A DNA stretch of 64,000 nt, from contig OY970065.1 in assembly GCA_963705295.1 (NCBI GenBank), forward strand, positions 512,001 to 576,000, written 5' to 3'. Every line of letters starts with the position of its first letter. The first letter of the stretch is position 1. The position numbers were made by a program, and so were the translations under genes. The notes under the pieces were generated by a model. That model made no database searches. It was not told the origin of the DNA and worked only from the letters and a program-made list of their open reading frames with translations. Origin of the DNA: Parachlamydiales bacterium (GTDB lineage Bacteria > Chlamydiota > Chlamydiia > Chlamydiales > Rhabdochlamydiaceae). This document shows, piece by piece, positions 49,559 to 55,706 of this stretch.

Positions 49559-51160
49559 ATGCAACTTAGAGATAAGTCCTTCAAAATAAACGGGAAGAAT
49601 CTATCAACATCAGATATTTATAAAATTGTTGGTGATTTTGAAATTAATGTTAGTGTTGATAAGGAAGTTGAAAATGGAATAAATGACTCTCACCAACTTC
49701 TTAATAAACTCGTAAAAGAAAATAGAATTATTTATGGTGTCAATACAAGTCTTGGAGGATTTGTTAACTGGTTAATCCCTTCAGAATTTGCTCAAGAGCT
49801 TCAAGAAAACTTAATATCTTCAGTGGCAAGCAATGTGGGTCCATATTTTAATGATATGATTGTTAGAGCTACTATTTTATCACGTTTAAATTCACTTGCG
49901 CGTGGAAATTCTGGAATTTCCCTTGAGAATTTCAATATTCTATTACAAATTTATAATTCAGGAATAATTCCTTGCATTCCTTCCAAAGGCTCTCTTGGTG
50001 CTAGTGGAGATTTAGGACCTCTTGCCAGTATAGCGCTTGTTGCCACAGGAAAATGGAAGGCAAAATACCAAGATAAAATAATTTCGGGGGAAGAAGCTTT
50101 AAATTTAGCAGGAATTAAACCGATGAAGCTCGGGTTTAAAGAAGGGTTGAGTCTTATTAATGGAACTTCTGCAATGGTTGGATTAGCATCTTTAATTTTA
50201 GAACAATCAATAAATTTGATAAAAATTTATGATGTGATTTCTTGTTTAACATTTGAAGGATTAAAAGTTAAAAAGAAGCCCTTTAATCCTATTGTTCATC
50301 GAGAAAAGCCACACCTTGGACAATTAAGAACAGCAGAAAATATCTGGGCGATTCTTAGCAATAGTCAAATGATCGTCGATGAAGATATTATTGAAAAACA
50401 ATTACAACCATCACTTTCTACGACACCTGTCTCTACTAATTCTCCAATCGAAGATGCGTATTCTATTCGATGTACCCCTCAAATAGTAGGTCCCATAAGA
50501 GATAGTTTAAAATGGATCAAATCTACTGTTATAAACGAATTGAACTCAAGTAATGACAATCCTTTGATTTTGTGTGGTAATGGTGATGTGTTTCATAATG
50601 GACATTTCCATGGCCAATATATTGCAATGGCTATGGATCATTTAGCTATATGTCTTACAACTTTATCTAATTTATCTGATCGTCGTATTGATCGCTTTAT
50701 GGATAAGAATCATAGCAACGGGCTCCCAGCATTTCTTTGTAGAGAGAAACCAGGCATTCGAATGGGATTAATGGGTGGTCAGTTTATGTCAACTTCACTT
50801 ACTGCTGAAAATCGTTCGCTTTGCCATCCGGTTTCTGTACAAACCCTCACTTCTACAGGTGATTTTCAAGATATCGTTTCTTTAGGTTTAGTTGCAGCGC
50901 GTCGTGCACAAGAACTTTTTGATAATACTTGTTATATCATTGCATTTGAACTGTTGTGTGGAGTAGAAGCCGCGGAATTACGGGATCCAAAGCAACTCTC
51001 AAAAGCTACAATGAACCTGTTTGGATATGTAAGAGAAATTGTTCCTTCTTTAGATAAAGAATATTGCCTCACTGATTGTTTGGAAAGCCTTGCAAAAAGT
51101 ATCAAAAATGGAAAATTTCTTTGTGATATAGAAAAATATATGGGAGAGATTCTTTTATAA
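49559..51160 (+). CDS. MIO-dependent phenylalanine aminomutase/ammonia-lyase (AdmH/EncP clade)
   Basis: MIO triad in GSLGASGDLGP; YGVNTSLGGFVNW, FKEGLSLINGTSAM, EDAYSIRCTPQ, FHNGHFHGQY, GLMGGQFM, TGDFQDIVS, as recalled for AdmH. Confidence 0.85.
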   Translation: MQLRDKSFKINGKNLSTSDIYKIVGDFEINVSVDKEVENGINDSHQLLNKLVKENRIIYGVNTSLGGFVNWLIPSEFAQELQENLISSVASNVGPYFNDMIVRATILSRLNSLARGNSGISLENFNILLQIYNSGIIPCIPSKGSLGASGDLGPLASIALVATGKWKAKYQDKIISGEEALNLAGIKPMKLGFKEGLSLINGTSAMVGLASLILEQSINLIKIYDVISCLTFEGLKVKKKPFNPIVHREKPHLGQLRTAENIWAILSNSQMIVDEDIIEKQLQPSLSTTPVSTNSPIEDAYSIRCTPQIVGPIRDSLKWIKSTVINELNSSNDNPLILCGNGDVFHNGHFHGQYIAMAMDHLAICLTTLSNLSDRRIDRFMDKNHSNGLPAFLCREKPGIRMGLMGGQFMSTSLTAENRSLCHPVSVQTLTSTGDFQDIVSLGLVAARRAQELFDNTCYIIAFELLCGVEAAELRDPKQLSKATMNLFGYVREIVPSLDKEYCLTDCLESLAKSIKNGKFLCDIEKYMGEILL

Positions 51161-51206
51161 AGAACTTGTTGAATATTAATTTTTTAATATAGAGAGGAGA
51201 TAGAGA

Positions 51207-52001
51207 ATGGTTATTGCTCAAGATATGGATCTTAACGCAAAACACTATAGAAAGAATTCAAAACTCCAACAAAGTTTAGCTTTAGGCTTGGTTAGAAATT
51301 ACAAATTCAAGGATTTTGAAAATATCCTTGATATCGGTTGTGGGGATGGTAGAATAACGGCCGATATAGCAGATCAAATACCAAACGGAAAAATCACAGG
51401 TATAGATCCTTCAATCAATATGATTGAATTAGCAAAGAAAACCTTTCCTAAGTCAGAATTTCCAAATCTTGATTTTCTATTAAAGAAAGCCGAAGATCTA
51501 ATTCAATATAATCGATATGATACAATTGTTTCTTTTAGTTGTCTGCATTGGGTTAGGGAGCCTGAAAAAGCTATATATCATATATGTCATTCTCTTAAAC
51601 CAAATGGTAATATTCTAATTCTAACTTATCCTAAAGAATCAACCTATTACGAGTTTCTTCAAGAAGCCCTGGAAAAGTTTCCTGATTATTGCTATGCATC
51701 AGCCTATAATACAATGCTAACCATTTTGGATTATAAGGATCTATTTCAAAGTAATGGAATAGAAATTCAGGAATTCTATTATCAAGATTTAATTGCTTCT
51801 TACAATGATGAAAATGCTGTTAGATCTTATATTAAGGGGTGGTTGACTAGTTTTGTTCCTTTGCCAGAATACCTACATGATGATTTTCTGAAGATAGCAA
51901 TAGAAAAAAGCCTTGATTATTCTATCGATATGAATAACGGCATGATAAATCTTCCTTACAAAGCTCTAGTTTTAAAAGGAATAAGAAAAATTGTTTGCTA
52001 A
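51207..52001 (+). CDS. Class I SAM-dependent methyltransferase (Tam/JHAMT-like carboxyl MTase)
   Basis: Y..NS.LQ, ILDIGCGDG, IDPS..MI, SFSCLHWV. Confidence 0.85.
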   Translation: MVIAQDMDLNAKHYRKNSKLQQSLALGLVRNYKFKDFENILDIGCGDGRITADIADQIPNGKITGIDPSINMIELAKKTFPKSEFPNLDFLLKKAEDLIQYNRYDTIVSFSCLHWVREPEKAIYHICHSLKPNGNILILTYPKESTYYEFLQEALEKFPDYCYASAYNTMLTILDYKDLFQSNGIEIQEFYYQDLIASYNDENAVRSYIKGWLTSFVPLPEYLHDDFLKIAIEKSLDYSIDMNNGMINLPYKALVLKGIRKIVC

Positions 52002-54542: not shown

Positions 54543-54997
54543 TCTTTGACTCCTGATTCTAGACTTGATAGTTTGAAATCTATATCAGGTAGAATTTCTT
54601 TTAGCAATCTACAATATGGATCGAGATGAGGGTCATTGGTAGGTTCCAATGTAAAGATACTGATCCCTGCAGCTATCGCAAAACCGATTTCCAAGATCGC
54701 AGCTCTGCCTAAGTAGGAATTGAAGTTTGCGACAACAATGAAGGTAGAGTGTTTGATTTTAGTAAAAACAGAGTCTTGGAGAAGTTTTGGGTCTTTAATA
54801 GGGTCTGAGTCAAAGATCACAAATTCGTCCTCGGGATTTACAACGGTTGTACCTGTGGGAGAAAGGACATGGAATCCCTTTTTTTCTAAAAGATGCTTTA
54901 GCACTAAAATTTGATTGAGATGTTTTCGAAATGAGCCAATGATAACTGTGCTGATTCCAGAGTCATTTTTGAAGAACATAGACGGCATAAGGGGCAA
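54500..54997 (-). CDS. Nucleoside 2-deoxyribosyltransferase-like protein
   Basis: IIGSF...G..VLSP...KI..S..IVV.N..SYLG.AA.LEIGFA.A.G pattern; start uncertain. Confidence 0.55.
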   Translation of the reverse strand: MPLMPSMFFKNDSGISTVIIGSFRKHLNQILVLKHLLEKKGFHVLSPTGTTVVNPEDEFVIFDSDPIKDPKLLQDSVFTKIKHSTFIVVANFNSYLGRAAILEIGFAIAAGISIFTLEPTNDPHLDPYCRLLKEILPDIDFKLSSLESGVKECGLIGASGPLSLP

Positions 54998-55706
54998 CCT
55001 CTGTTTCTGAAACCCATGCTGTTTTTTCTTCAGGGTGTCCTAAAGGAAAATGCTTCTCTACAAGTTTGAGCCCTGCGAGTTTGAAAAGCTCTTCATAGTC
55101 GGAATCGGTCCAGAAATAATTGACGAAGTCTATTCCTCGATCTTTCAGTTGTATACGGGTGAGTTGTCCGCTTTTAGGGTTGCGATTCTCGTGGTAATTT
55201 ACATTATAGGATACCCAGTCGTTCGAATAGAGCTCCTCGGTTCCTGTGACCAATATGAAGATTCCTTCATCTCGAAGGCACCGATGGATTTCTTTCAGGA
55301 TTGCAAGGATTTCTTTTTTGGTAGAGATTGTGAAAAAAACGAAACATGAAAAAACTAGATCATATGAGTTGTCCAACACGGGAATTTGGCCACTTTTGAT
55401 GTGTAAGTAGTGAGACTCATCATCTATTGTCAAAGCCTGCGCTAGCATCTCTTTACTGACATCGACGCCGATCGTTTCAAAGCCGAATTTCTTTAAAAAC
55501 CGAGTAGAACGCCCTGTGCCGCATCCGTAATCAATGGCTCTTTTCCCTACGGTGTATTTCTCCAAGAAATAGGGTATATCCCGATATCCTAAATAATAGG
55601 TATTTTCTAAGCCAGAATCGGCATATTTTTTAGCGTTATCTTTGGTATCATTAAAATTCTTCGGAGGGGTGAGTGTTGCTGAATTGCCTTTATTTTTCTT
55701 TGACAC
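54963..55706 (-). CDS. Class I SAM-dependent methyltransferase
   Basis: IDYGCGTGRS, GVDVS.EML, YDLVFS; GTG start with aggag RBS. Confidence 0.88.
   Translation of the reverse strand: MSKKNKGNSATLTPPKNFNDTKDNAKKYADSGLENTYYLGYRDIPYFLEKYTVGKRAIDYGCGTGRSTRFLKKFGFETIGVDVSKEMLAQALTIDDESHYLHIKSGQIPVLDNSYDLVFSCFVFFTISTKKEILAILKEIHRCLRDEGIFILVTGTEELYSNDWVSYNVNYHENRNPKSGQLTRIQLKDRGIDFVNYFWTDSDYEELFKLAGLKLVEKHFPLGHPEEKTAWVSETEVAPYAVYVLQK

Follow-up and report, generated by a model that had tools for sequence, protein, structure and literature searches.

The stretch of DNA analysed here, referred to as the window, comprises 64,000 nucleotides of a Parachlamydiales bacterium of the family Rhabdochlamydiaceae (assembly GCA_963705295.1, contig OY970065.1, positions 512,001 to 576,000). 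Three of its genes are the subject of the current work: PAM, an enzyme of the 4-methylideneimidazole-5-one (MIO) type related to the phenylalanine aminomutase AdmH; MT1, a methyltransferase that uses S-adenosylmethionine (SAM); and MFS1, a transporter of the major facilitator superfamily (MFS). These three genes very probably form one unit. The fuller reading, for which the evidence is about evenly balanced, is that they are a mobile cassette, independent of any nonribosomal peptide synthetase (NRPS), that would make and export beta-phenylalanine methyl ester. The genome is a single contig of 2,131,910 bp (94.7% complete, GC content 0.438), and the nearest relatives of the window proteins are found in metagenome-assembled genomes (MAGs) of Chlamydiota assigned to Rhabdochlamydiaceae, Parachlamydiales and Simkaniaceae.

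The six genes that the initial annotation had placed at 49559-55706 agree in coordinates and strand with the open reading frames (ORFs) found. The genes and the features that adjoin them are the following.

49559-51160, plus strand: PAM, AdmH-type MIO phenylalanine 2,3-aminomutase/ammonia-lyase, 533 aa
51207-52001, plus strand: MT1, putative carboxyl O-methyltransferase of 264 aa, a class I SAM enzyme resembling JHAMT, Tam and BioC
52004-53209, minus strand: MFS1, MFS transporter of the size expected for 12 transmembrane helices, 401 aa, predicted product exporter
49200-53250, no strand: low-GC block that contains exactly PAM, MT1, MFS1 and the DNA preceding PAM, interpreted as a cassette gained by horizontal transfer
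48942-49110, no strand: palindromic repeat element, MITE/REP-like, 169 nt, bordering the low-GC block on the left
53277-54542, minus strand: MFS2, MFS transporter of the metabolite/H+ symporter type, 421 aa, link to the cassette uncertain
54500-54997, minus strand: orf165, NDT-superfamily-like, 165 aa, TTG start with ATG at codons 4 and 7
54963-55706, minus strand: MT2, a further class I SAM methyltransferase, 247 aa, with an uncertain connection to the cassette

MT1 and MFS1 are convergent, and their stop codons are 2 nt apart.

The association of the three genes was examined in two sets of relatives. In the first, 26 PAM-encoding loci were searched by tblastn with the window proteins; 17 of them are chlamydia-type loci, in which 203 ORFs around PAM were clustered into neighbour families, and 9 are from Photorhabdus, Nocardia and Salinispora. 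In the second, the window genome (G000) was compared with 40 related genomes (G001-G040), giving 41 in all. Genomes and loci were drawn from one public species collection and possibly overlap, so the two counts are not additive. A relative of MFS1 together with a methyltransferase adjoins PAM in 13 of the 17 chlamydia-type loci and in 0 of the 9 AdmH/actinomycete loci. Relatives of MT1 itself stand beside PAM in 10 of the 17, and relatives of MFS1 in 13; the 9 Photorhabdus, Nocardia and Salinispora loci contain neither and have NRPS-like matches instead. The chlamydia-type loci fall into four arrangements: PAM, MT1 and MFS1 only (5 of 17: L002, L003, L008, L009, L011); the same three with a stand-alone AMP-binding enzyme (5 of 17: L005, L006, L010, L013 and the fragmented L025); an AMP-binding enzyme with a methyltransferase of a different family (3 of 17: L007, L014, L024); and other neighbours (4 of 17: L004, with another MFS gene and an HlyD-type gene; L012, with an EamA transporter; L015; L019). 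The three-gene cassette recurs across environmental chlamydiae and is also present in MAGs labelled as other phyla. The initial annotation had held that its proposal would fall if the neighbours of PAM were never conserved with it; a methyltransferase and an MFS transporter are so conserved.

Among the 40 related genomes, five carry a high-scoring PAM (789-825 bits): G005, G015, G016, G017 and G020. MT1 lies directly beside it in G005, G015 and G020 (47%, 56% and 41% identity), and a relative of MFS1 is near it in the same three genomes and, at 36% identity, in G016. The MT1 orthologue beside PAM in G015 (C4:45547-46326) has one in-frame TAG and could be a pseudogene or reflect a sequencing error. 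In G020 (contig C1, 7399-11199; locus L037) MFS1 is split into two parts on opposite strands, with residues 1-150 upstream of PAM and residues 151-398 downstream of MT1; an inversion that took in PAM, MT1 and part of MFS1, and so broke the transporter gene, would be expected to leave such an arrangement.

One natural fusion of PAM and MT1 was observed. In L009, an in-frame ORF of 804 aa consists of a Lyase_aromatic domain (31-508) and a methyltransferase domain (582-721), with no stop codon at the junction. Alignment to the sister locus L011 shows a clean deletion of about 67 nt that has taken away the 3' end of PAM, the stop codon and the spacer, and PAM joins the ATG of MT1 itself. A second protein with MIO-enzyme and methyltransferase domains, P0194, has 398 aa and is encoded on a contig of 1,248 bp. 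A search among longer proteins covered 934-2665 aa, a range that lies above fusions of about 800 aa. The MIO fusions that it returned were all distant: the partner is an AMP-binding domain in four proteins, each of about 1080 aa (P0395-P0398, 31-32% identity), and urocanase-type domains in one (35% identity).

The base composition provides independent evidence for the unit. The segment from 49559 to 53209 (3651 bp) has a GC content of 0.326, the lowest of 4257 windows of this size in the genome. The GC contents of PAM, MT1 and MFS1 are 0.344, 0.313 and 0.314, and the values at third codon positions (GC3) are 0.215, 0.226 and 0.264; GC3 is 0.509 in MFS2, 0.415 in MT2, 0.367 in orf165 and 0.514 in the NRPS gene of the window. 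Sharp GC steps occur at about 49,200 and about 53,250, the latter between MFS1 and MFS2. The shared extreme composition indicates that PAM, MT1 and MFS1 arrived together, and that MFS2, orf165 and MT2 did not come with them. A cassette GC content below that of the flanks was also found in 12 of 13 related loci. PAM, MT1 and MFS1 are thus probably a recently acquired horizontal cassette. The low-GC block has, exactly at its left boundary, one of five genome copies (98-99% identity) of the repeat at 48942-49110, whose 65-nt arms are 77% complementary and whose RNA fold has an energy of -103.1 kcal/mol (z -10.2). An 89-aa ORF spanning this repeat (48931-49200) is unlikely to be a real gene. No Rfam match was found in 44000-60000, and the promoter-like sites (28, against 25.1 +/- 4.8 in shuffles) and terminator-like sites (7, against 4.7 +/- 2.2) in 48800-56300 were no better than those of shuffled sequence.

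PAM can be assigned to the AdmH type with high confidence. It matches the Pfam family Lyase_aromatic with 510.8 bits, and its best NCBIfam model is TIGR04475 (phenylalanine aminomutase, D-beta-phenylalanine forming) with 794.2 bits; its clade-mates in G015 and G020 score 824.5 and 817.7 bits on this model, whose curated cut-off is 800. It is also under the cut-offs of two other models, on which it scores far lower (hutH, 448.1 against 539.15; tyrosine aminomutase, 421 against 501). Among solved structures, AdmH (3UNV) gave 610 bits (E 2.6e-182), and the next, a tyrosine aminomutase/histidine ammonia-lyase structure of the SgcC4 type, gave 314. The full-library search yielded 9664 relatives; on clustering at 50%, the entire AdmH/chlamydial group was reduced to one representative, P0244, which is 54% identical to PAM and scores 864 bits on TIGR04475. 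In several public databases, close relatives of PAM already bear the name "phenylalanine aminomutase (D-beta-phenylalanine forming)"; elsewhere they appear as histidine or tyrosine ammonia-lyase.

The relationships of PAM were further resolved in a tree of 55 MIO enzymes (IQ-TREE quick search, LG+G4, SH-aLRT support only), in which AdmH was represented by its Photorhabdus orthologues, AdmH itself and EncP not being among the rows; L007 was left out, its translated PAM frame containing four stops. PAM lies inside a chlamydia-type clade of 25 rows (SH-aLRT 98). The adjoining clade of 9 rows (SH-aLRT 99) contains the Photorhabdus AdmH orthologues and the Nocardia and Salinispora enzymes, and both belong, with L015, P0245 and P0246, to a super-clade of 37 rows with SH-aLRT 100. 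The tyrosine aminomutase (TAM) and HutH rows are outside this super-clade. PAM therefore did not group with HutH, an outcome that the initial annotation had named as one that would refute its proposal.

The active-site residues give a similar picture. The motifs quoted in the initial annotation are all present in the translation of PAM (LISSVASNVG at residue 85, FHNGHFHGQY at 345, GLMGGQFM at 403), and the MIO triad Ala148-Ser149-Gly150 lies within G-ASG-DLG at residue 147. In the specificity loop, Val (Val89 in PAM) occurs in all 25 chlamydia-type rows and in 8 of the 9 AdmH-type rows, L017 having Ala; all 18 TAM, histidine ammonia-lyase (HAL) and other rows have His. The Ser-His pair of HAL and TAM corresponds to Ser-Val in PAM. 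The loop His of HAL, tyrosine ammonia-lyase (TAL) and TAM binds the ring substituent of the substrate, and Val89 is the non-polar residue at that position. As for the MIO triad, every one of the 25 chlamydia-type rows carries ASG and 8 of the 9 AdmH/actinomycete-type rows carry TSG, in line with the ASG-for-TSG difference pointed out earlier. The columns of Tyr59, Asn201, Tyr301 and Arg304 are invariant across all 55 enzymes, and PAM keeps 28 of the 41 columns that mark the AdmH/actinomycete clade against the 18 TAM, HAL and other rows.

Among known systems, PAM is thus most like AdmH (PaPAM of the andrimid pathway, EC 5.4.3.11). The two share the super-clade, the loop Val and the blocks FHNGHFHGQ, GLMGGQFM and TGDFQD, and PAM is 57% identical over 512 residues to the Photorhabdus orthologue L016, which itself gives 952 bits on 3UNV. 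PAM differs in belonging to a sister clade rather than to the AdmH clade, in its triad, and in having a methyltransferase and an MFS transporter in place of a co-conserved NRPS or polyketide synthase (PKS) neighbour. With the SgcC4-type TAM (2OHY, 2RJR) and HutH it shares the fold, the MIO chemistry and the ASG triad; these enzymes, however, have His in the loop where PAM has Val and form separate clades.

MT1 has the glycine-rich SAM motif DIGCGDG at residue 42 and matches the Pfam families Methyltransf_25, 11, 12 and 31. It had been described as Tam/JHAMT-like, and this description agrees with the structural comparisons: the best solved relative is JHAMT 9un4 (56.9 bits, E 1.8e-14), and a Foldseek search (probability 1.00) with the AlphaFold2 model of MT1 (pLDDT 96, from an alignment of 60 sequences) gave template-modelling scores of 0.75 for JHAMT, 0.69 for Tam and 0.63 for BioC. 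In structural alignments, MT1 and the JHAMT chains are at most 19% identical. Gln21 and His114-Trp115 of MT1 align with Gln14 and His114-Trp115 of JHAMT. According to PMC8526772, Gln14 and His114 of JHAMT anchor and deprotonate the carboxyl group and are essential for carboxyl methylation, the mutants Q14A/E/H and H114A/Q/F being inactive. In 70 proteins of the MT1 family, Gln21 is present in 70, His114 in 65 and Trp115 in 70. MT1 is unlike JHAMT in a conserved polar stretch, LTYPKES-YY, which aligns with the pocket helix that is hydrophobic in JHAMT. The retention of the catalytic Gln and His suggests that MT1 probably methylates a carboxyl group; a carboxyl methyl ester would be the likely product, derived from beta-phenylalanine or, less likely, from cinnamate. 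Many of the related genomes (G001-G040) also contain several Tam-like methyltransferase paralogues that are 27-35% identical to MT1, with at most five matches per genome, which suggests that this methyltransferase family has expanded in these chlamydiae.

MFS1 matches Pfam MFS_1 with 70.6 bits (gathering threshold 33.4); MFS2 matches the same family, so that both genes named as MFS transporters in the initial annotation are of this type. The Atlas neighbours of MFS1 are named "arabinose efflux permease, MFS family", which serves as a lead only, and no solved relatives were found at E <= 0.01.

Further information on the intermediate comes from sister cassettes of four genes (MIO enzyme, stand-alone adenylation enzyme, methyltransferase and MFS transporter), which occur in 8 of the 17 chlamydia-type loci and in G016. 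They are like the cassette of the window in having PAM of the same clade and the same MFS1 and MT1 families, and differ from it in the adenylation gene, which the window genome lacks; its best matches there are NRPS domains at 34-37% identity. The adenylation enzyme is of the NRPS type, has 494-555 aa (439 aa in the shortened L025 copy) and no carrier domain, and is 30-35% identical to the A domains of the window NRPS. It keeps the FD motif with the amino-binding Asp (Asp235) that is typical of amino-acid activation, and the C-terminal Lys is kept in all copies except that of L025. An enzyme of this type in the sister cassettes suggests an intermediate in which the amino group is retained, and this would favour beta-phenylalanine over cinnamate.

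The methyltransferases differ between the cassette types. The catalytic His is present in each of the 6 cassettes of the three-gene or fused kind, whereas the MT1-type enzymes beside an adenylation enzyme have Met in 4 of 4 (L005, L006, L010, L013; NAFMW, NAMMW or NALMW), with Gln and Trp retained. The two methyltransferase types represent two subfamilies, so the six and four cases are not ten independent events. This pattern fits a split in chemistry in which the carboxylate would be methylated in the three-gene form and passed to the adenylating enzyme in the four-gene form. Since the window has no adenylation gene and its methyltransferase keeps the His, its pathway appears simpler and probably differs in chemistry from that of the four-gene type. 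The His-to-Met switch where an adenylation enzyme is present is a structure-function prediction that can be tested directly.

From these observations, the following route is proposed. PAM would move the amino group of L-phenylalanine to C3 and so give beta-phenylalanine, with some cinnamate as a possible side product. MT1 would methylate the carboxylate by means of SAM and give beta-phenylalanine methyl ester, and MFS1 would export the product from the bacterium. Beta-phenylalanine, rather than cinnamate, is the likelier acid.

Several points weigh against this route. The score of PAM on TIGR04475 is 6 bits under the curated cut-off, and its triad is ASG, unlike the TSG of the AdmH orthologues. 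PMC3903478, which cites Chesters 2012 on this point, reports that AdmH also shows lyase activity at elevated temperature; the sequence is therefore compatible with either beta-phenylalanine or cinnamate as the product. MT1 is under the equivalog cut-offs of both BioC (90.1 against 184.95) and Tam (58.1 against 297), and for this reason it is named a carboxyl O-methyltransferase by mechanism and not by equivalog. The top Foldseek match of its model is the uncharacterised Anabaena methyltransferase 3ccf, and its acceptor acid remains a prediction. The export direction of MFS1 is a guess. Since L009 is a MAG, the fusion of PAM and MT1 amounts to one assembly and one short contig. Because the related loci share ancestry, and some may be present in more than one collection, the counts are not independent.

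The alternative that survives best keeps the same cassette and reads PAM mainly as a phenylalanine ammonia-lyase, in which case MT1 would make methyl cinnamate, a volatile ester either exported by MFS1 or diffusing away. The lyase activity of AdmH is in favour of this view, as are the ASG triad, which is the usual one in lyases, and the Gln/His pair, which would suit any carboxylic acid. However, the best family model is an aminomutase and the closest solved protein is a mutase, and the sister cassettes add an adenylation domain of the amino-acid type with Asp235. The polar LTYPKES-YY stretch in place of a hydrophobic pocket helix points the same way, if weakly. On this evidence methyl cinnamate is possible and is the less probable product.

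In another alternative, the six genes would all belong to one pathway, for example one with a doubly methylated product and separate import and export. The initial annotation had drawn its island in this way, and the packing of the four minus-strand genes speaks for it: MT2 and orf165 overlap by 35 nt, orf165 and MFS2 overlap by 43 nt, and the gap between MFS2 and MFS1 is 67 nt. The sharp GC step at about 53250 nevertheless separates MFS1 from MFS2. In the 26 loci, MFS2 was matched in one (L025), MT2 gave one marginal match (41.6 bits, in L008, over its MT1-type gene) and orf165 matched none. MFS2 scores 237 bits on the metabolite/H+ symporter model TIGR00883 (cut-off 443), and MT2 lacks the Gln/His motif found in MT1, its solved relatives being generic ones only. 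The term NDT-like earlier applied to orf165 is weakly supported: the match to Pfam Nuc_deoxyrib_tr (PF05014) has E 0.026 and 15.1 bits against a gathering threshold of 28.8, and its language-model (Atlas) neighbours are NDT/YtoQ clusters at 0.93-0.96. Of the 40 related genomes, G020 alone has a relative of orf165, and there it is encoded on a contig other than that of PAM; orf165 probably has nothing to do with the cassette.

Two other genomes suggest that MFS2 or MT2 could nonetheless be functionally connected with the cassette. In G018, a divergent MIO gene, 30% identical to PAM and HAL-like (365 bits, under the cut-off), is followed by genes for an MT2-like protein (44%), an MFS2-like protein (37%) and a Tam-like methyltransferase; in G017, PAM stands beside a Tam-like methyltransferase gene and an MFS2-like gene (40%). 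Together with L025, these are the only places where relatives of MFS2 were found near MIO genes. An MIO enzyme with methyltransferases and MFS transporters is a recurring local theme. As one pathway, the six genes are unlikely. The co-conservation and the shared low GC hold for PAM, MT1 and MFS1 and for none of MFS2, orf165 and MT2; the earlier interpretation stands with regard to the type of enzyme and, as a prediction, to a methylated and exported product, and its unit was drawn too wide.

A further alternative concerns genes of the window that the initial annotation does not describe.

31595-40798, minus strand: NRPS, 3067 aa, with three AMP-binding, two condensation-type and three carrier domains and one thioesterase
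31081-31674: phosphopantetheinyl transferase (PPTase) gene, adjacent to the NRPS

PAM could supply beta-phenylalanine to this NRPS, as AdmH does for the andrimid assembly line. The NRPS and the PPTase are in the same window as PAM, and all of the AdmH/actinomycete-type loci examined have NRPS-like matches beside the enzyme. The NRPS is, however, 8.7 kb upstream of PAM, with PARG-like, Ank/TPR/RING, IS607 and OTU genes between them, and its host-like composition (GC 0.48, GC3 0.514) contrasts with that of the cassette (0.33 and 0.22). Its first module has matches (E <= 1e-30) in 4 of the 41 genomes (G000, G001, G016 and G035). G001 and G035 have no PAM match, and in G016 the match is confined to a stand-alone adenylation gene of 520 aa that lies about 1.3 kb away from the PAM of this genome; no NRPS orthologue was found at this threshold in any of the five PAM-bearing relatives, G005, G015, G016, G017 and G020. 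A role of PAM in feeding this NRPS is thus very unlikely.

That PAM instead acts on histidine or tyrosine (as HutH, TAL or TAM) and has been scored wrongly by the models, as the public names of some relatives would have it, can be dismissed as highly improbable in view of its hutH and TAM scores below the cut-offs (448 against 539; 421 against 501), the Ser-Val in place of the HAL/TAM Ser-His, its position in the tree apart from both, and hutU, which was not found. A role in histidine utilisation was ruled out by the same family scores, tree and loop residue together with the negative result for hutU. The earlier statement that no hut genes are present holds to the extent that hutU was not found in the genome and PAM is its only MIO gene; hutI was not searched for.

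Other features of the window were also recorded. By eye, the second condensation-type domain of the NRPS resembles a heterocyclisation domain, and its third adenylation domain has a long insert. The matches of its first module in its own genome include a paralogue (46% identity). A paralogue with a frame of 3908 aa lies at 1.91 Mb of contig C1. Two tandem genes of about 530 aa for PQQ-like beta-propellers (27766-31012) adjoin the PPTase and NRPS. Between the NRPS and the cassette are three eukaryote-like candidate effectors: a microbial PARG-like protein (40855-41934), a RING/TPR/ankyrin protein (42986-44719) and a weak OTU-like protease (47904-48836; 22.6 bits, just below the cut-off). An IS607-type element in single copy (45283-47499) has a serine-recombinase transposase (204.6 bits) and a TnpB split into two ORFs of 267 aa (45896-46699 and 46696-47499). 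On the other side of the cassette, a GyrB/ParE-like protein of 602 aa (58905-60713) is far below the cut-offs of gyrB (381 against 882) and parE, and is followed by an ORF of 638 aa (60706-62622).

Literature searches found no paper that combines phenylalanine aminomutase and Chlamydiae, nor one on the chlamydial enzyme or the cassette, in accordance with the initial annotation, which had called the pathway undescribed. The main text of PMC9666466, on biosynthetic gene clusters of sponge chlamydiae, does not contain the terms aminomutase, ammonia-lyase, phenylalanine or methyltransferase, and PMC9002059, on the evolution of MIO enzymes, does not mention Chlamyd, AdmH or Pantoea.

The aminomutase type is thus a known one in an undescribed context free of assembly lines, and no such free-standing pathway has been described. 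To our knowledge, all characterised bacterial aromatic 2,3-aminomutases feed NRPS or PKS assembly lines. Here the same type of enzyme is found in a minimal, mobile cassette without an assembly line, together with a predicted carboxyl methyltransferase and a transporter. The pair of PAM and MT1, which has been naturally fused once, could offer a compact biocatalytic route to beta-phenylalanine esters.

An improbable extension of the proposed route is that the cassette is exchanged among environmental chlamydiae and other host-dependent bacteria and that the target of beta-phenylalanine methyl ester is the host cell and not the bacterium. Synthetic amino-acid methyl esters accumulate in acidic compartments. 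The ester would be membrane-permeant and resistant to proteases and metabolism, and would act as a weak-base ester in acidic compartments or as a diffusible signal. If this is true, the products of the three-gene and four-gene versions would be distinct members of one undescribed family of effectors derived from beta-phenylalanine. Little is known of the secondary metabolism of obligate intracellular bacteria, and a beta-amino-acid ester, if this is what the cassette makes, would add a new small molecule to their output.

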